37,957 nucleotides of DNA from Armatimonadota bacterium. Lineage in GTDB: Bacteria > Armatimonadota > UBA10988. Location: the NCBI GenBank assembly GCA_016235455.1, contig JACRKZ010000039.1, positions 1 to 37,957 of the forward strand. The letters are read 5' to 3'. The first letter of the stretch is position 1, and every line of letters begins with the position of its first letter. This document shows, one piece after another, positions 1-8,865 of this stretch. The notes beneath the pieces were generated by a model that had not been told where the DNA came from, made no database searches, and was given only the letters and a program-made list of their open reading frames with translations. Both the position numbers and the translations under genes were made by a program.

Positions 1-1
1 C

Positions 2-229
2 AATGTGCACAAGGCGCGGTGCATCGCGCCCGACCTGTTCGACCTGGCTCGCAAACCGCCTGGCAAGCCGACGCGGGCCGAGTGCGGCTGCTGCGCCAGC
101 ATCGATATCGGCGCCTACGAGACCTGCCCGCACGGCTGCGGCGCGAGCTACTGCTACGCCGTGGCCAGCCATGAGCGCGCGCTGGCCAACTGCCGGGCGC
201 ATGAGCCGGGAGCGACCCGCCTGGGTTGA
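2..229 (+). CDS. DUF1848 family protein, C-terminal part (truncated by window edge)
   Basis: C-terminal motif RAECGCCASIDIGAYETCPHGC...YCYA matches the DUF1848 CxCxxSxDIGxYxTCxHGCxYCYA Cys cluster; TGA at 227-229. Confidence 0.85.
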   Translation, partial: NVHKARCIAPDLFDLARKPPGKPTRAECGCCASIDIGAYETCPHGCGASYCYAVASHERALANCRAHEPGATRLG

Positions 230-241
230 GCCACGCGCCGC

Positions 242-1597
242 TCAGGCGTCCAGCGTCTCCTGCTCGTCGGCCTCGGCGGTCTCGAAGTGCGTCCGTCCAT
301 CGACCGCCATGCGCAGCGCACTGACCACCGGCTCGACCTCCGCGCCGTGGTTCACCTCAATGACCCGTCCGCCGACCAGCTCGACGCGGTGGCCTGCACT
401 GGTCTCGGCCACCCCCGCCACGTCGTCCCAGCCGAAGACGGCCTCCTGCCCGGAGGTATCCCGCAGCATCACGCGGCCGCCCAGCACCATCGCGTTGGGT
501 GGATCGTTACGCCTCTCCTGGCGTGCGGCCTCGGCCAATTGGTCAATGACGGCCAGCGCGGCCACGCCGAGGGACACCGCGGTGAGCAGGTAGGCGGTTA
601 GCGTAGCGTAAGCGACGGCACCGGCGACAAGAATCGCGGACAGCCCGACGATGGGTATCCACGGGATGCCGCTCTCGTCACCGGCGTCGAACTGCGCGCC
701 GCCCTGGGCAGGCCGGCTGCCCGGCGTCGCGCGACTGACCCCCCGCAGGGCACCGACCGCCAAGGCCGGCTGACCGGCCGGCGACAACGCCGCCGCGGGC
801 ACCGGCGGCGCCGCGGCGTGGAAGCCAGCACGATGCGCCACCACCGTGCGGAGCGCACCAACCAGCGGCTCAAACGCCGCCGCAGCGGGCAGATGGACGA
901 CCCGACCGCCGCTCAGCCGCACATCGTGCCGCAGTGGGCCAGAGTCGATTCGCTCCACCTGCCCCCAGGCGAACGTGACCGGCAACTGGCCGCGACGCTG
1001 CACCTCCACACCGCTCGGGCCGGCCGCGACACGACACGCCGGCCGCCGCCGTCGGGCTGCCACGTAGGCCGACAGGCGCGCGCAGAGCGCGGCACCAGCC
1101 GCCATCGGCGCCAGTGCCAGCAGCCATGGGTTCCACGGCAGACTGGCGCTCTGGGCGAGGAGCCAGCCAAGCGACACAACGGCGAGGAGGGCGGCCCACG
1201 ACGCCAGGTCGGCGCTGGATGGCGAGTCCTCCACCGGCCCTTCGGCGACGACCGCGACTCGGAACCCGGCCAACCAACGCTCGACATCCGCGGGTTCGAT
1301 GAGAAGGTGCCCGTCGTCCTCGGTTCGCGCGAGCATGGCTTGGTTGATGGCCTGGCCCAGCCCACTCATTCCCGCAACGCCGCGCTCGATCCGCACTTGG
1401 CGCAGACCGGCCTGGACAACCAGCGTGTCGGCGCCGTCCCAGTGCACCGCCGTCACATCGCCCCACGGTATGTGCAGCGGTCGCCCGATCCACCGCTCTA
1501 CCGTGACGCCGTCTTCATCAAGCACTACCGCCCGCCGGTTGCGCAGCCAGCCGTGGCGGTCGGGGAAGCGTTGGGGCTCGCAGTTGGCGCCGCTCAT
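242..1597 (-). CDS. Array paralog 6 (B-type, long, 451 aa): membrane protein with three PH-like modules
   Basis: Starts MSGANCEPQRFPDRHGWLRNRRAVVLDEDG; ATG overlaps the stop of paralog 5 (ATGA, 1594-1597); two hydrophobic hairpins; repeated WxxV beta-rich modules. Confidence 0.85.
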   Translation of the reverse strand: MSGANCEPQRFPDRHGWLRNRRAVVLDEDGVTVERWIGRPLHIPWGDVTAVHWDGADTLVVQAGLRQVRIERGVAGMSGLGQAINQAMLARTEDDGHLLIEPADVERWLAGFRVAVVAEGPVEDSPSSADLASWAALLAVVSLGWLLAQSASLPWNPWLLALAPMAAGAALCARLSAYVAARRRRPACRVAAGPSGVEVQRRGQLPVTFAWGQVERIDSGPLRHDVRLSGGRVVHLPAAAAFEPLVGALRTVVAHRAGFHAAAPPVPAAALSPAGQPALAVGALRGVSRATPGSRPAQGGAQFDAGDESGIPWIPIVGLSAILVAGAVAYATLTAYLLTAVSLGVAALAVIDQLAEAARQERRNDPPNAMVLGGRVMLRDTSGQEAVFGWDDVAGVAETSAGHRVELVGGRVIEVNHGAEVEPVVSALRMAVDGRTHFETAEADEQETLDA

Positions 1598-2499
1598 GCG
1601 TCCAGCGTCTCCTGCTCCGCGTCGGCCGGGCTCAGGCCGCGGTGCGCCTCGGTCCAGCGCTGGCCCGCTGGGGATAGGGCGCTGGCAGGCACCGGCAGGT
1701 GTTCCGCGTCGAACCCCTCGCGCCGGCGTGCCAAGTGACGCAGCGCGTTCAGAACCGGCTCAAACTGCGGGCGGTTCGGCATGGTCAGGTCGCGGCCGTC
1801 GCTCAGGTGGATGCGGCAGCCGTCGGACCACTCCACCAGCCCAATCACTTCGTGCCAGGCGAAGCTGTCGGGCTGGCCGCCGGCCGGATGAATGGTCACC
1901 CTCTCGCTGTCGGCGGTGACGCGGCAGGCGGCGGGGCCGAGCGCGGTCAGGCGCCGCGTCGACAGCCACGTCACCGCGGCGATGAGCTTGGCGGTGAGCA
2001 GCACGACCAGCAACCAGGCGATCCATGCCCAGGTCGATCCGCCGCTCGGCGGCCCGTAGCCCAACGCCAGCCACCACAGCGCCAGGCTGCCCACCAATCC
2101 CAGCCCGAGCGCCCCCGCCAGGGCCACCAGGCCCCCTTCGTGCAGGTCGAGCGCCGGCCGATGAACAGCACTGGTGAACCCTCCCAGCCAGCGCGCCACA
2201 TCGTCGGCCAGGGCGCCGCCAGCGGCGTCCTCCTCGGCCTGCCCGGTGACGCGTTCATGCACCGCGCGCGCCAGTTGGCTGAGCCCCACCACGCCGCGGT
2301 CCAGCGACACGCTGCTGCCCATGGTGATCAACTCGAGCGTGTGCGCGCCATGCCAGCGCGCGCCAGCCAAGTCGCCCCAGGCGATGCTCGTCGGCGGGCC
2401 CAGCCAGCGCTCGACCGTGATGCCGCGCTCATCCAGCACCACCGCCCGCCGGTTGCGCAGCCAGCCCTGTCTGTCCACGAAGCGCTGTTCACCGTGCAT
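1594..2499 (-). CDS. Array paralog 5 (A-type, 301 aa): membrane protein with two PH-like modules
   Basis: Real start MHGEQRFVDRQGWLRNRRAVVLD at 2499 (GAGGA RBS upstream) within ORF 1594..3402; central TM hairpin; ends PVPASALS...RGLSPA...EQETLDA. Confidence 0.85.
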   Translation of the reverse strand: MHGEQRFVDRQGWLRNRRAVVLDERGITVERWLGPPTSIAWGDLAGARWHGAHTLELITMGSSVSLDRGVVGLSQLARAVHERVTGQAEEDAAGGALADDVARWLGGFTSAVHRPALDLHEGGLVALAGALGLGLVGSLALWWLALGYGPPSGGSTWAWIAWLLVVLLTAKLIAAVTWLSTRRLTALGPAACRVTADSERVTIHPAGGQPDSFAWHEVIGLVEWSDGCRIHLSDGRDLTMPNRPQFEPVLNALRHLARRREGFDAEHLPVPASALSPAGQRWTEAHRGLSPADAEQETLDA

Positions 2500-2543
2500 C
2501 CAGGTGTCCTCGCCACGACCGCATCGCCAGGCTCCGCTGGTAT

Positions 2544-3866
2544 TCAGGCATCGTTGAGGCGATCCTGCTCTCCCTCGGCCGCGCGAAGGCGATCCCCGCG
2601 TCCGGAACCGGTCGGCTTGCCGACGGCGGCGCGCAAGGCGGCCACGACTCGCGTGACACCGGCGCCCTCGGGCATCATCACGGTTTGGCCGCTCTGGAGC
2701 TGGATGCGGTAGCACGAACCAACGACCGCCACCGACGCCACGTCGGCCAGCTCGATGGTGCGCCTGGGGCCTCGGCCGTCGCCCAGCACCACCTGCTCGC
2801 CGACGAGGGCAGCCCAGGTTCGCCCCCGCCGACGGCGGCCGCGCTGCGGAGCGCAGCCCTTGAACGCCTCGATGATCACCCGCGGCAAGCGCCACAGCAA
2901 GTACAGGCAGATCCAGGTGCCGGCCAACAACGGCGGTTGGTCTTCGGTGACGCCGTTGAGCCAGACGATCAGCAGCGAAGCACCGGTGATGGCGGCAAGA
3001 GCATAGGGGTTCTCGTCCTCGCCAAGCCCAGTCGGCGGGCTCGGTCTGGCCGCGACTGCCACTGGCGCCGGATCCGCCTCGGACGCCGGTGCCGCCCGGC
3101 TGACACCATGCTCCGCAGCATGCGACGCCGATGGCGGCGCCGATGGCGACAGCGCCGCCAAGGGCACGGGCGGCGGCTGAGCGTGGTACCCGGCGCGATG
3201 CGCAAGGACCATGCGTATCGCGCCGAGCAAGGGCTCCAGCTCCCCTGACGCCGGCAGCGACACGGCTCGGCCATCGCTCAGCGTCACGGTGTGCCGATCT
3301 GGGCCGGACTCGACGTGCACGACCTGCGTCCAGGCGAACTCTTCGGGCAACTGGCCGCGCCGCTGGACCTCGACGCCGCTTGGTCCAACCACCACGCGGC
3401 ATGATGGGCGGCGGCGCCGCGCCGCCATCAGGTCATGGCAGCGCGCATACACGGCGCCGATGACGGGCCACGACGCCAGACCGGTGCCTGACGCCGGCGT
3501 CGGCGCATGACCCTCGGTCACAATCGCCACGTGGAATCCGCCGAGCCAGCGTTCGATGTCTTCGGGTGCGACCGGTATCTGTCCGTCGTCGTCGGCACGC
3601 GCCAGCATGGCCGCATCGATGGCCTGGCCCAGGCCATGCACGCCGTCGACGAAGCGGTCGAGCAGCAGCGTCCGACCGGTCGCCTCGACCTCGATCAGAT
3701 CCGGCCCCAGCCAGGTGGTCGCCAGCACATCACCCCAGGGGAGCCGCGCCGCGCCGCCGATCCACCGCTCGACGGTGAGACCGTCGCCATCCAGCACCAC
3801 CGCCCGCCGGTTGCGCAGCCAGCCGCGGCGGTCGGGGAAGCGTTGGGGCTCGTGTGGCGTGGTCAT
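2544..3866 (-). CDS. Array paralog 4 (B-type, long, 440 aa): membrane protein with three PH-like modules
   Basis: Starts MTTPHEPQRFPDRRGWLRNRRAVVLDGDG; ATGA overlap with paralog 3; closely similar to paralog 6 (GPSGVEVQRRGQLP, AHRAG, PPVPxAALSP). Confidence 0.85.
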   Translation of the reverse strand: MTTPHEPQRFPDRRGWLRNRRAVVLDGDGLTVERWIGGAARLPWGDVLATTWLGPDLIEVEATGRTLLLDRFVDGVHGLGQAIDAAMLARADDDGQIPVAPEDIERWLGGFHVAIVTEGHAPTPASGTGLASWPVIGAVYARCHDLMAARRRRPSCRVVVGPSGVEVQRRGQLPEEFAWTQVVHVESGPDRHTVTLSDGRAVSLPASGELEPLLGAIRMVLAHRAGYHAQPPPVPLAALSPSAPPSASHAAEHGVSRAAPASEADPAPVAVAARPSPPTGLGEDENPYALAAITGASLLIVWLNGVTEDQPPLLAGTWICLYLLWRLPRVIIEAFKGCAPQRGRRRRGRTWAALVGEQVVLGDGRGPRRTIELADVASVAVVGSCYRIQLQSGQTVMMPEGAGVTRVVAALRAAVGKPTGSGRGDRLRAAEGEQDRLNDA

Positions 3867-4780
3867 GCGTCCGCCTTCTCCGACTCGGCCCGGCTCAGGC
3901 CGCGGTCGACATCGTTTGCCCGCGGCTCGTCATTCGCGAGCGACAGCGCGGCGTCCGTCACCGGTCGCTGAAGGCGAATGCGGGGTTGGCGCGCGGCGAG
4001 CACTCGGCGAACGGTGTCAGCCACCGGCCCAAACTCACCGCGCTTGGGCAGGTCAACGTGGGTGCCATTGGCGGTGCGCAGTTCCCAGGACTCGGCGGTC
4101 TCTCTGACCGACTGGATGTCGTCCCAGGCGATGACCTGCTCCTCGTCGTCATGGCGAACCGACAGGTGGCGGCCATCGGCACGGACCGCGCATGTCGTGT
4201 ACTGCGGACCGGTCACCGCGCGGATCAGAGCGCCTGTAACCCGCATCGCGCCCGCCACGGCGCCAAGGTAGGCCACCAGTACCAGCATGAAGAACCCGAA
4301 GTAGCCGCAGTATGGCTCACAGCGCGCCGCGGCGGAGAACACATAGGCGCCGACCACCGCCGCGGCCACCATCACCACCAGCGGGAGGTAGGCTTCCAAG
4401 CGGCCCCGCAACTCGACCATCGGCTGGCTGGCGGAGAGCTCGACGCGCTTGTACTTGAAGCCGCACAGCCACCGCTCGATGGTCGCAATCCGGCTCATCA
4501 GTCGCCTCTTGCCACCTCCGAACTCCGCCATCGCCGTGTCAACGATCTCCGCGAACCGGTCAAGCCCCGCGACGTGCCCGTCAAGGCATAGCTGGCCTCC
4601 GGGCCAGGCCACCCTGAGCCGGTCCGACCGTAGCCAGCTCGCATCGGTCACCTCCGCCCAGGTGATGCTTAGGACGGGGCCTACCCACCGCTCGACCGCA
4701 ATGCCCCGCTCATCGAGCACCACCGCCCGCCGGTTGCGCAGCCAGCCGCGGCGGTCAGGGAAGCGTTGGGCCTCAGTCAT
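3863..4780 (-). CDS. Array paralog 3 (A-type, 305 aa): membrane protein with two PH-like modules
   Basis: Start MTEAQRFPDRRGWLRNRRAVVLDERG at 4780 with strong GGAGGAGG RBS; TM hairpin; ends PVTDAALSLA...RGLSRA...KADA. Confidence 0.85.
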   Translation of the reverse strand: MTEAQRFPDRRGWLRNRRAVVLDERGIAVERWVGPVLSITWAEVTDASWLRSDRLRVAWPGGQLCLDGHVAGLDRFAEIVDTAMAEFGGGKRRLMSRIATIERWLCGFKYKRVELSASQPMVELRGRLEAYLPLVVMVAAAVVGAYVFSAAARCEPYCGYFGFFMLVLVAYLGAVAGAMRVTGALIRAVTGPQYTTCAVRADGRHLSVRHDDEEQVIAWDDIQSVRETAESWELRTANGTHVDLPKRGEFGPVADTVRRVLAARQPRIRLQRPVTDAALSLANDEPRANDVDRGLSRAESEKADA

Positions 4781-4787
4781 GGCTTCT

Positions 4788-5741
4788 TCACCTCCTCCGC
4801 TTTCCACGGCGCCTTCTGGAGTTGGCCGTCGCTTTGCTGATCCCGCGGTCGCCGCCAGGAACGGCTGCCCGGCCGTGTACGGGCGATAGCGCTGTGTCTG
4901 GAACCGGCCGCACCTCGACGTCGCGCTCATCGCGTACGCGCAGCACCAGCCGCAGGACGCGGAAGAACGGGGCGAACTCCGCGTACGGCGGTATCCGCAC
5001 CGGCTCGCCATTGTGCAGGCCAATCTCGACATAGCCCACCCGCCGCACCATGTAGGCGACTTGCGTCCAGCCAAACACGACGCTCGGCACGGCGCCGCAG
5101 CCAACACGTATGGTGTGCGGGTCGACTGACACCAGGCAGGGCCGAGCGAAGCCAACACGCCGAGCCCGCCACCAGCCGTACAGCAGCATCGAACCGAACA
5201 CCGCAAGGGTGGAGCCAGACATGTAGTAGCGGTTGAAGACGTCGCCGCCAGGATCGAATCTGCGAGGCGGAGTATCGCCATGGACTGCGATCCACGCCAG
5301 CGCGGCAAGACCGAATATCGCGACAAACATGCCGCACCCGGTAGCCCACGAAGCGCACCCGGTGTCGGCGCTCTCCGAGACATCATCGCTCGGCGACCCG
5401 CCGACGTACGCCTCGCGGAAGTCGCCGAGCCACCGCTCGATGTCAGCGGGCGCGACGGCTTCGCGACCACCGTCGTGGGCCTTTGGGCGCATCTTCTGTT
5501 GGATGCCCTCGGCCAAGCCGCCCGCACAGTTCCTCAGCCGGAGCGGCCTATCGACGGTCTTGAGCAACAGCACATTCGAACGTTCCCACCGCGCCGCCAG
5601 CACGTTGCCCCACGCGATGCGCGTTGGTGCCCCCAGCCACCACTCGACCGTAAGGCCGTCGTCGTCGAGCACCACCGCCCGCCGGTTGCGCAGCCAGCCG
5701 CCGCGATCGGGGAAGCGTTGGGGCTCGTGCGGGCTGTTCAT
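4788..5741 (-). CDS. Array paralog 2 (B-type start, short, 317 aa): membrane protein with two PH-like modules
   Basis: Start MNSPHEPQRFPDRGGWLRNRRAVVLDDDG at 5741, ATGA overlap with paralog 1; TM hairpin; PVPDTALSP...RGISKA tail. Confidence 0.83.
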   Translation of the reverse strand: MNSPHEPQRFPDRGGWLRNRRAVVLDDDGLTVEWWLGAPTRIAWGNVLAARWERSNVLLLKTVDRPLRLRNCAGGLAEGIQQKMRPKAHDGGREAVAPADIERWLGDFREAYVGGSPSDDVSESADTGCASWATGCGMFVAIFGLAALAWIAVHGDTPPRRFDPGGDVFNRYYMSGSTLAVFGSMLLYGWWRARRVGFARPCLVSVDPHTIRVGCGAVPSVVFGWTQVAYMVRRVGYVEIGLHNGEPVRIPPYAEFAPFFRVLRLVLRVRDERDVEVRPVPDTALSPVHGRAAVPGGDRGISKATANSRRRRGKRRR

Positions 5742-6640
5742 GCGTCCACCTGCTGCTCCTCCGCCTGGCTCAGCCCGCGGTCGACATCGGCGACCGGCTC
5801 GTGCTCGGCCAGTGACAACGCACCGTCCGGCAGGGGCTGGCCGGCGGTGCGGAAGCTCGCCTGGTGGCGGAGCACGGCCCGGATCGTCTCGATGACCGGC
5901 TGGAACTCGCGGCACTTGGGGATCACGATCTGCGCGCCAGGGACTGTCGACACGACGAAGCAACCATCACGCTCGGCGATGGCTGCCACTTCGGACCAGG
6001 CTGCAATCCGCACCCGACCGCGAGTGACTCGGAAGTGCTCCGCATTGGCCGTGATCTCGCAGGCCTCATCGACGGGCGGCCAGAGCCAATGCACGAGGCC
6101 GATGACCGACGCGATCAGGCCGGCCGGCGTGGCCACCATCAGGAGCGACAGACCGGCATAGCCCGGCTCCCCCTTGCCCGGAGGCGTTGTGCCAGTGAGC
6201 ACATACCAGATGCCGCACCCCAAGCCCACGCCAAGGAACAGCAATGTGAAGTCGGCGTACCCCCGGTCAAGCACGCGGTCAGCCGCCGATTGGCGCACAC
6301 CAAGGCGCGCCTTCTTGAACCCGTTCAGCCAGCGGAGCACATCCCCGCCTCCGATCACGGTGCCGCCCCTCGCGCTGTGTCGCGAAGCCAGTTCGGAGTC
6401 GATGCACGCGGCCAGTTCGGTCAGCCGCTCAGTGCCGGCAGCCACGACGAACTCGCCATCGATGGTGGTCACCACCAGCCGCCCGCCGTCCTGCCACGTT
6501 GCCCCGACGATGTCGCCCCACGGCACGCGCTGCGACCGCCCAACCCAGCGCTGGACCGTGATGCCCGCGTCATCCAGCACCACCGCCCGCCGGTTGCGGC
6601 ACCAACCGCGTCTGTCCCGGAACCGCCGCTCGCCGTCCAT
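5738..6640 (-). CDS. Array paralog 1 (A-type, 300 aa): membrane protein with two PH-like modules
   Basis: Start MDGERRFRDRRGWCRNRRAVVLDDAG at 6640 (alternative GTG at 6646); TM hairpin; ends PLPDGALSLA...RGLSQA...QVDA. Confidence 0.83.
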   Translation of the reverse strand: MDGERRFRDRRGWCRNRRAVVLDDAGITVQRWVGRSQRVPWGDIVGATWQDGGRLVVTTIDGEFVVAAGTERLTELAACIDSELASRHSARGGTVIGGGDVLRWLNGFKKARLGVRQSAADRVLDRGYADFTLLFLGVGLGCGIWYVLTGTTPPGKGEPGYAGLSLLMVATPAGLIASVIGLVHWLWPPVDEACEITANAEHFRVTRGRVRIAAWSEVAAIAERDGCFVVSTVPGAQIVIPKCREFQPVIETIRAVLRHQASFRTAGQPLPDGALSLAEHEPVADVDRGLSQAEEQQVDA

Positions 6641-6723: not shown

Positions 6724-8865
6724 ATGCCCGGTCTGCTATCGTCGTTGCTCACGCTCGCCCTGCTGGCGCCGCCCGACCCGGTCGCGGTCACGCGCTTCGA
6801 GCTGGTCGAACCCATGGCCCGCGCGCTGAGGCCCGCCGGCCTCGTGGCGCAGGTGGCCAACCGCGGTGCCGACACGCTGGACCTGGCCGTGGAGCTGACC
6901 GGCCCGGCCGAGCTGCGCATCGCCAAGCCCAGCACAACGGTCAGGATCGAGGCGCAGGACGAGGCTCGGCTGACGTTTGAGGTGACCGCCGACCAGCCCG
7001 GCACGCGACGGCTGACGCTGACCGTGCGCGCCGCTGGTCAGGTGGTGGCCAAGCGCGACCTCGACGTTCTGTTCCTCGCGCCGGTCGCGCAGCGCAAGCT
7101 GCCGTACATCTCCGCGCCCCAGCCGGTGCGGTCCAAGCTGCTGGTCGGCGCGCACCACTGCCCGCTGTGGGAAGCCGACAAGCCCGAGATGTGGAACCAG
7201 CTCCTGGTGCACCCCGAGCGCACGCCGGCACTGGGCTTCTATGACCAGGCCAACCCCGAGATCTCCGACTGGGAGACCAAGTGGGCCAGCGAGCATGGGG
7301 TCGACTTCTTCATCTACTGCTGGTATCGCACCAAGCAGGGCGGCCCCGTCGAGACGCGCTTCTCCAGCGCCATTGAGCAGGCGTTGCTGCGGTCGAAGTA
7401 CCAAAAGGACATGAAGTTCACCATCATGTGGGAGAACCAGTCCCGCGGCACCTCAGGCGTGGCGGATGAGAAGGACCTGTTCGACAACCTGCTGCCGTAC
7501 TGGATCGACAAGTATTTCAAGACCGAGAGCTACTTGAAGGTGGATGGCAAACCCGTGCTGTTCATCTATCGCCCCGAGTTTCTGGTCCAGGACCTGGGTG
7601 GCGAGGCGCAGGTGAGGGCGGCCTTCGACAAGATGCGCCAAGCCTGCCGGGCCGCGGGCTTCGCGGGCCTGACCCTCCTCGGCGAGTATCGCGGGCTCGA
7701 TGCCAACCACCTGCAGCTCATGAAGCGGCTGGGGCTGGACTACACCTTCGCCTACTGCTGGTACGTGGGCAACAACCCCACCCCGCAACAGGCCATCGAC
7801 GCGCAGATGGGCTACCTGCACAAGACCCAGGAACTGGGCATCCTGCCGCAGGTCGCCACCGTGTCGCAGGCCTGGTCGGGCTGGAGCGACGAGGGCACCA
7901 TCTGGAAGATCCCACCCAAGCAGTTCGGGGAACTGCTTGGGCAGGCCAAGGAGTTCGTCGGCACGCTGCCCAAGGATCAGCTTGGCAGCCAGATGCTGCT
8001 GCTCGACAACTGGAACGAGTGGGGTGAAGGGCACTACATCGCGCCGTACCGCGAGTACGGTTTTGGCTACCTCGATGCCGTGCGCGAGGTCATTGCGGGC
8101 GACACCCGTCCGCACGACGACCTGATCCCGCAGGATATCGGTCTCGGGCCGTATGACAAGGCGTACTGGGCCTGGCGCAACAAGGCCGACGAGCAGCGCA
8201 AACTGGGCAACCGGCGCGTCTTCAAGCCCGGCGCGCCGGCCGACGGGCTGGTCGGCTGGTGGGCGTTCGACGAGGCCGACGGCTCACCCGTCGCGCTGGA
8301 CTACAGCGGCAACCGTCTCGGGGCGAGCATCGAGAAGGCGTCGCGCGCGCCCGGCCGCGACGGCCGAGCGCTGGTCTGCGATGGCGGCTGGGCCGTGGTG
8401 CCGAGCAATGATCTGCTCAACATGGCCAAGGCGGTCAGCATCGAATGCTGGGTGAAGACGGACGTGGCCGGGCAGGGCAACACCTGGATGGTCAATCGCG
8501 TGCTGTCGGGCGGCACCGACACGGGCTACCGGCTGGGCATCCTGGACGGCAAGCCTTGCTTCGAGGTGCCGCAGACCAGCTTCAGCCATCACCTCAGCGC
8601 CGCCGAGCCGCTGCCCACCGGGCGCTGGGTGCATCTGGCCGGCACCTTCGACGGCCGGACCATGCGCATCTATATGGACGGCGTAGAGAAGGGCACCATG
8701 GACCGGCCCGGCCCTATCAAGCCCAGCAAGCTGCATCTGGTGCTCGGCAACTACGAGGTCAGCCACGCCGCCTACTTCCACGGCCTGCTGGACGAAGTGA
8801 AGCTCTGGAGCCGCGCGCTCAGCGCCGACGAGGTCAAGGCCCACGCGGCGGCGGCCGCCAAGTAG
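6724..8865 (+). CDS. Secreted glycoside hydrolase family 99-like (WbsX-like) protein with C-terminal LamG/ConA-like domain
   Basis: Signal peptide; TPALGFYD, GVDFFIYCWY, YLKVDGKPVLFIY, DNWNEWGEGHYIAP motifs; C-terminal GLVGWWAFDE...WVHLAGTFDG...IYMDG...GLLDEVKLWSRALS. Confidence 0.85.
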   Translation: MPGLLSSLLTLALLAPPDPVAVTRFELVEPMARALRPAGLVAQVANRGADTLDLAVELTGPAELRIAKPSTTVRIEAQDEARLTFEVTADQPGTRRLTLTVRAAGQVVAKRDLDVLFLAPVAQRKLPYISAPQPVRSKLLVGAHHCPLWEADKPEMWNQLLVHPERTPALGFYDQANPEISDWETKWASEHGVDFFIYCWYRTKQGGPVETRFSSAIEQALLRSKYQKDMKFTIMWENQSRGTSGVADEKDLFDNLLPYWIDKYFKTESYLKVDGKPVLFIYRPEFLVQDLGGEAQVRAAFDKMRQACRAAGFAGLTLLGEYRGLDANHLQLMKRLGLDYTFAYCWYVGNNPTPQQAIDAQMGYLHKTQELGILPQVATVSQAWSGWSDEGTIWKIPPKQFGELLGQAKEFVGTLPKDQLGSQMLLLDNWNEWGEGHYIAPYREYGFGYLDAVREVIAGDTRPHDDLIPQDIGLGPYDKAYWAWRNKADEQRKLGNRRVFKPGAPADGLVGWWAFDEADGSPVALDYSGNRLGASIEKASRAPGRDGRALVCDGGWAVVPSNDLLNMAKAVSIECWVKTDVAGQGNTWMVNRVLSGGTDTGYRLGILDGKPCFEVPQTSFSHHLSAAEPLPTGRWVHLAGTFDGRTMRIYMDGVEKGTMDRPGPIKPSKLHLVLGNYEVSHAAYFHGLLDEVKLWSRALSADEVKAHAAAAAK

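Follow-up and report, generated by a model that had tools for sequence, protein, structure and literature searches.

A tandem array of six PH-membrane paralogs in an Armatimonadota bacterium, probably a recombination-shaped chain of genes

The six genes and their protein family

The 37,957-nt stretch of DNA analyzed here (hereafter the window; contig JACRKZ010000039.1 of the Armatimonadota bacterium assembly GCA_016235455.1) carries six intact genes, g1 to g6, on the minus strand between positions 6640 and 242. An earlier note on this DNA had read the array as three gene pairs, each consisting of an upstream A gene (g1, g3, or g5) and a downstream B gene (g2, g4, or g6), and had proposed the coupled pair as the unit of duplication and a 1:1 heterodimer as its product. 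The six genes, the three stop/start overlaps, the gaps of 7 and 44 nt, and the start peptides are all as quoted there, and the six genes are indeed not equivalent. The array as a whole, however, is probably one recombination-shaped chain of interchangeable PH-membrane paralogs, and not three dedicated two-protein complexes.

The g1 gene (5738..6640, minus strand, as for all array features below) codes for a protein of 300 amino acids (aa) composed of PH1, a WLG helix, a membrane hairpin, PH2, and an ALS..RGLS tail, and ending in EEQQVDA; its 5' end is of the type shared with g5. The same build is found in g2 (4788..5741; 317 aa), of which the last nine codons (RRRRGKRRR) appear out of frame, and in g3 (3863..4780; 305 aa; end ESEKADA), which combines B-type 5' DNA with a body closest to that of g1. 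The g5 gene (1594..2499; 301 aa; end EQETLDA) has a g1-type 5' end and a body closest to those of g6 and g4. The long type is represented by g4 (2544..3866; 440 aa; end EQDRLNDA) and its sister g6 (242..1597; 451 aa), the latter with three PH domains and two hairpins. The B genes do not form a class of long proteins, g2 being only 317 aa.

All six proteins can be aligned across PH1, the WLG helix, the two-helix hairpin, PH2, and the tail, with pairwise identities of 29-41% except for g4 and g6 (59%), and PH1 is homologous to PH2 (HH probability 98%). A second hairpin and PH3 are added in g4 and g6, in g4 beyond the tail, so that g2 has two PH domains and one hairpin, g4 three PH domains and one hairpin, and g6 three PH domains and four helices. 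In g4 the whole first membrane hairpin is gone by an in-frame deletion (window about 3430-3465), with the flanking PH domains and the second hairpin kept, and this loss would preserve the topology of the protein. The basic residues after the hairpin suggest that PH1 and PH2 are both cytoplasmic.

The cut-off of Pfam bPH_6 (PF10756; 22 bits) was passed by g1 (32.6 bits, E 8e-8) and g6 (29.7 bits); g3 (20.2 bits) and g5 (20.5 bits) fell just below it, and g2 and g4 gave no bPH_6 match singly, g2 matching no Pfam entry at all on its own. Among the aligned family members, 60 of 99 matched bPH_6 at E<=0.01 and none matched bPH_2, which we take to be the family of YdbS and YdbT. A feature search gave only a lead of 0.90, to a bPH_10 cluster. 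A sequence search of solved structures yielded no relative below E 0.17, NCBIfam two weak matches far below cut-off, and PADLOC none. The family counts 178 representatives at E<=0.001, is present in all seven genomes of the class searched, and has 43 open frames, often arrayed, in this genome; a profile of the tail gave 39 C-terminal matches at 15 bits or more and none in reversed controls. The best named match for RecA was a Fimbriimonadaceae MAG at 77%, followed by others at 60-67%, which makes Armatimonadota probable. The first hairpin is the least conserved region across the family. No paper on the family, the tail, or the array was found in the literature searched, the scope of which left out supplements and most subscription journals. 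The architecture (at the level of sequence), the family size, the mosaic of 5' ends, bodies, and tails, and the identical 5' block (see below) are shown by these data, and the six are probably paralogous inner-membrane proteins of a lineage-specific family related to bPH_6.

Some members depart from the standard build. A tandem array on contig C7 (G000:C7:11500-18500; locus L066) encodes four or more proteins that gave no Pfam or PH match and bear the same ALS..RGLS tail. Short members at two loci, L054 (G003:C438) and L059 (G002:C4), start at the WLG helix and do not contain PH1, and because of these members the helix-hairpin-PH2-tail part is taken as a stand-alone module. The 444-aa protein P0007 from another assembly is a full-length relative of g4 and g6 with the same three-PH build and the DA end, and therefore the long type is old. 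One member (L062; G000:C167:25352-26390) seems to be split across two frames, probably by a frameshift.

Gene junctions and the copied tract

The junctions g1/g2 (5738..5746), g3/g4 (3863..3871), and g5/g6 (1594..1602) consist of the same stop/start overlap, GACGCATGA, which occurs exactly three times on the minus strand of the window. Among the 360 coding-like ATGA overlaps of the genome, four contain this 9-mer, three of which are those of the array, and therefore the three junctions share descent from one coupled junction and do not agree by chance. The alternating placement, which is one of the 10 ways to put three overlaps on five junctions, carries little weight alone.

A ribosome-binding site of its own had also been assigned to each of the gaps between the pairs. 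This holds for the 44-nt spacer between g4 and g5 (2500..2543), the sole junction beyond coupling distance, in which a weak Shine-Dalgarno sequence is present. For the 7-nt gap between g2 and g3 (4781-4787) it does not, for the Shine-Dalgarno sequence of g3, AGGAGGTGA (4796-4788), lies in the end of g2, forming its last two codons and stop, and is the strongest of the six (-17.7 kcal/mol). The distance of +7 nt falls within the range of -8 to +10 nt that was taken as predictive of termination-reinitiation by Huber et al. (PMC10666635).

The g2/g3 junction region (4777..4818) includes this Shine-Dalgarno sequence, the 7-nt spacer, and a neighbouring frame ending at the ATG of g3. Four of the last nine codons of g2 are AGA or AGG, which make up 2% of the Arg codons in this genome, and none of 2050 long genes has four of them at that place. 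The neighbouring frame uses ordinary codons, reading QKAPWKAEEVKKP, and its stop is a TGA that overlaps the g3 ATG. The gap is a probable former -4 ATGA overlap that was lost through a small frameshift. Contigs from two runs are free of gaps at this site, and the present sequence is therefore considered real. Since the 7-nt gap is still within coupling distance, the array would be composed of the coupled runs g1-g4 and g5-g6 (4+2). A possible LDA relic at the start of g5, in another frame, was judged to be chance.

The DA-stop end is not specific to the A genes but is present also in g4 and g6, in two uncoupled genes of contig C90, and in 11 of 145 representatives. The 3' end of g6 (235..265) is itself a copy of the g5/g6 junction, identical at 30 of 31 nt with 7 nt beyond the stop included, in which CTG replaces the overlapping ATG.

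Near the 5' end of each gene, a block coding for RNRRAVVL was identified at 6576..6598 (g1), 5668..5690 (g2), 4716..4738 (g3), 3787..3823 (g4), 2429..2465 (g5), and 1521..1543 (g6). Of the g6 block, 17 nt are common to all six genes and up to 27 nt are shared pairwise; the g4 and g5 blocks are identical over 37 nt, and between every pair of genes the block gives an exact match of 17-41 nt, against 10-20 nt for the rest of each gene. Where residues are identical, the codons within the block are also identical in 172 of 214 pairwise cases (0.80, expected 0.51), and those outside it are identical at the level of chance (0.40-0.57, expected 0.44-0.56). The bodies of g4 and g6 are also synonymously saturated (58/125).

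The position of the block just past every start codon, and the hairpin that can be drawn in several of its copies, could be taken to mean that selection on the mRNA, for structure or initiation, preserves it in place of recombination. The folding of the six copies was, however, no better than that of shuffles (z from -1.22 to +2.11) and the predicted structures differ, on which ground the RNA hairpin was rejected. The unlinked paralog c166a, with nearly the same peptide, agrees with the block codons at chance level (38/69), and c166b at a lower level (16/64). Selection on the mRNA is thus highly improbable, and local recombination or gene conversion is the simplest cause of the identity, because the unlinked paralogs are at chance level or below it and RNA folding is not significant.

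The similarity extends over the junctions as well. The g3/g4 tract of tail, junction, and start (3720..3960; 241 nt) is 78% identical to that of g1/g2 (5595-5832), and such tracts among the three overlapped junctions are 207-241 nt long with 77-78% identity. Other arrays of the family are likewise conserved at the tail and start tracts, for example over 241 nt at 90% in contig C98. In one locus of that contig (L063; G000:C98), the junction tracts 562-801/1598-1838 and 2585-2722/3813-3950 are 89-90% identical in the order X,X,Y,Y, and the bodies are divergent. In the lpl tandem paralog cluster of Staphylococcus aureus, the 3' part of gene n is congruent with the 5' part of gene n+1 (Tsuru and Kobayashi 2008; PMC2568036); this strict test failed here, and the copied unit is therefore taken to be the junction itself. 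The overlap and the B-type start belong to the same piece of DNA, so that their presence together counts as one inherited trait and not as two independent signs of pairing.

Relationships among the copies, their relatives, and strain variants

The starts of the A genes, which the earlier note had put together, do not form one class. The 5' DNA of g3 matches g2, g4, and g6 at 26-28 of 33 nt, against 18 of 33 for g1 and g5, and the body of g5 is closer to those of g6 (41% identity) and g4 (36%) than to those of g1 (31%) and g3 (30%); the start of g3 and the body of g5 thus stand on the wrong side of the division. The 5' ends of g1 and g5 are of a common type (six diagnostic sites), each preceding the same junction. 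In the body, A and B are not strictly told apart by any column, and the division g1-3 | g4-6 scored as well as A|B or slightly better (16 versus 14 columns; 0.35 versus 0.31).

Trees were made from seven alignments of the six genes, six of them partitions. The A|B split was the best resolution in six of the seven, with bootstrap values of 35-60 in five of the six partition trees and 80 in the seventh alignment; trees lacking the split were not rejected (p-AU, from the approximately unbiased test, 0.11-0.54). In a tree of 16 proteins, consisting of the six and 10 outgroups (18 rows of a 34-protein set being left out), only g4+g6 was firm (97/91). The B genes formed a clade (76/60) and the A genes did not, an A clade being not rejected (p-AU 0.265), and g1+g3 was absent. 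FastTree on the 34 proteins recovered neither class. As classes, A and B are only weakly indicated by the sequences.

If the pairs were duplicated as pairs, the A and B trees should agree. The sisters g1+g3, from pairs 1 and 2, were supported at 96-98 in five of the seven alignments, and g4+g6, from pairs 2 and 3, at 82-99 also in five, so that the two trees are incongruent; g4 and g6 are 59% identical, and their supposed partners g3 and g5 only 30%. All three pair-congruent trees were rejected on the full core (p-AU 0.018, 0.025, and 0.001), and on three trimmed alignments one was rejected (0.004-0.012), one was borderline (0.040-0.054), and one was not rejected (0.077-0.116). Because g1+g3 is missing from the 16-protein tree, this evidence against the pair as the unit of duplication is good and not decisive.

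Twelve relative loci were compared, two of them single genes and 10 of them arrays with 25 junctions. An in-frame start codon is found at -4 in 11 of the 25 junctions and at -1 in one, these starts being candidate codons (ATG in only five of the 11 cases at -4); consecutive overlaps are present in four of the 10 arrays. Within this genome, the closest paralogs (c166a, c166b, and c100) each stand alone. In this genome and in relatives the genes occur as singletons and in arrays of two to six, with no conserved two-gene linkage. Three outside proteins all start with MTPQRF and end with EPEDAP, which suggests a chain of a single type. Word-based locus searches of genome and metagenome collections gave no outside relatives among 599 and 600 candidates, a search for the 26-nt block pattern in metagenomes gave no match, and a word-based protein search gave four matches, all of them the window's own.

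These observations altogether bear on the proposal of three A-B pairs that were duplicated as such and that each code for a specific 1:1 heterodimer. The three near-identical coupled junctions, the repeated A|B split, and the B clade with an A clade not rejected agree with it, and in Escherichia coli short overlaps are 4.5-fold enriched for subunits of complexes (PMC10666635). In the same organism, however, 69.6% of closely spaced pairs are in no known complex (PMC10666635), and with the incongruent trees, the mosaic g3 and g5, a probable fourth overlap at g2/g3, and the singletons and overlap runs of the relatives, the proposal is quite unlikely. That one or two old duplications of two genes took place, were blurred by conversion, and left no functional pairing would agree with the weak but consistent A|B signal, with the 5' type common to g1 and g5 before the same junction, and with the tree (pair 1, pair 2), pair 3, which is the one not rejected on trimmed alignments. 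A single crossover offset by two genes, however, could not yield both g1+g3 and g4+g6 as sisters, and with the rejection of all pair trees on the full core this purely historical pairing is unlikely.

Contigs from other runs provide a view of strain variation. Contigs of X1 and X2 end at 5' blocks. One X6 contig, from another study and in one of four runs, joins 2429 to 3788 via the 37-nt block, resulting in the g4 block followed by the g5 body. This joint matches the expected product of a deletion, but it is no less likely that the assembly took a path through the repeat. In a variant allele of g6 (P0152), six of 451 residues differ, all within residues 136-166, which form the first membrane hairpin (1100..1192); these differences may reflect an imported tract or selection. 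In the P0152 contig, nine of the 13 listed base differences lie within 82 nt.

Upstream of the array, a divergent glycosidase-like gene is located at 6724-8865; its product has a catalytic region similar to WbsX and, at the C terminus, a LamG domain. On the other flank is a convergent DUF1848 gene, which continues on contig C59; window 1-466 corresponds to G000:C59:47656-48121 at 94.6% identity, and a seventh copy on C59 was rejected as being the same locus continued in a variant strain. A scan for promoters and terminators gave no promoter-like and one terminator-like site, at or below the level of shuffles. Among the 65 of 120 candidate neighbouring frames scanned (one window gene included), there was no recurring neighbour family and no bacteriocin gene, the neighbours being assorted metabolic genes.

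The most likely explanation remains the single chain of interchangeable paralogs. The array would have grown by duplications, either of single genes or offset ones, with recombination or gene conversion recopying a tract of about 240 nt that covers the upstream tail, the ATGA overlap, and the next gene through codon 45. The core of the copied tract may be kept identical over 17-41 nt and the gene bodies left to diverge freely. Ancestrally, the genes were probably linked in a chain by -4 overlaps, of which that of g2/g3 would have been lost by the small frameshift with coupling kept.

Several points weigh against this explanation. Besides the preference of the six-gene alignments for A|B, the A clade not rejected, the absence of g1+g3 from the larger tree, and the candidate nature of the starts in relatives, the 5' end of the next gene was not correlated with the upstream gene body (rho -0.51, 108 of 120 permutations as high; five units) and was weakly correlated with the upstream last 45 nt (rho 0.49, 23 of 120 as high); in these Mantel tests, which had little power, none was significant, including that of own 5' end and own body (rho 0.21). 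For recombination in Bacillus subtilis, about 70 bp has been quoted (PMC2568036), which is longer than the exact core here. The frameshift at the end of g2 has codon statistics as its one basis, and the Shine-Dalgarno sequence itself also gives AGG codons. The X6 joint contig has a depth of 5.8 with patchy cover, in a repeat where the contigs of other runs break; some 54 of its letters could not be placed, and X6 has the 3' part of g4 as well.

As to function, our best guess is that the proteins would assemble as interchangeable subunits into homo- or mixed membrane oligomers mediated by PH domains, and not into fixed 1:1 dimers; the variable hairpin would set the specificity and the tail would be a shared signal. 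An extended possibility, which we consider unlikely, is that the array is an active generator of diversity: crossovers at the blocks would swap bodies and alter copy number between strains with coupling kept, the products would form mixed PH-ring membrane complexes, their variable outer hairpins would be under diversifying selection (for instance as sensors of peptides, toxins, or phages), and the RGLS tail would dock on a partner shared across a whole class of Armatimonadota. If the mixed-oligomer or the diversification reading is true, the array provides a handle on the role of membrane-anchored bacterial PH proteins. Recombination that copies a junction can give genes the look of dedicated pairs, which is a trap when heterodimers are deduced from shared overlaps.

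Comparison with known systems

The analogy with the YdbS-YdbT pair drawn in the earlier note fails on both family and architecture. On the side of likeness, the YdbS/YdbT and DdE/DdF genes lie next to each other in the same orientation and code for membrane proteins that contain bacterial PH domains, and YdbT has three PH domains, as do g4 and g6 (PMC8657885). YdbS is, however, a protein of about 150 aa with two helices and one PH domain, and YdbT one of about 490 aa with six helices and three PH domains (PMC8657885). The A genes, with 300-305 aa and two PH domains, are not built as this short partner, and none of g2, g4, and g6 has the build of YdbT, g2 being of A size. YdbS/YdbT-like pairs export leaderless bacteriocins (PMC8657885). 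The bPH_2 type is absent from the aligned family, as described above.

Xu et al. (2010; PMC2817789) showed C5 and C12 rings of bacterial PH domains and hypothesized that the membrane-anchored members are oligomeric pores or transporters. Compared with bPH_6 and with the membrane-anchored bacterial PH proteins described there, the present proteins are distinguished by two to three PH domains around the hairpins, the WLG helix, and the ALS..RGLS tail.

The closest parallel is the lpl cluster of S. aureus (PMC2568036), in which tandem paralogs of envelope proteins likewise contain a nucleotide-conserved block inside every open reading frame, the 5' and 3' parts of one reading frame differ in history, as in g3 and g5 here, and the DNA across a gene junction is passed on together. 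The lpl block is 132 nt long and central, whereas the present one is near the 5' end, with 17-41 nt exact and about 90 nt at 85-87%; the conserved unit here is the tail, junction, and start only and not the whole 3' region; and the products are integral-membrane PH proteins in place of lipoproteins. Strain rearrangement of the lpl type is hinted at here by one contig, possibly an artefact. The array would thus be a case of concerted evolution at the level of the junction outside Staphylococcus, in an uncharacterized family of membrane PH proteins.

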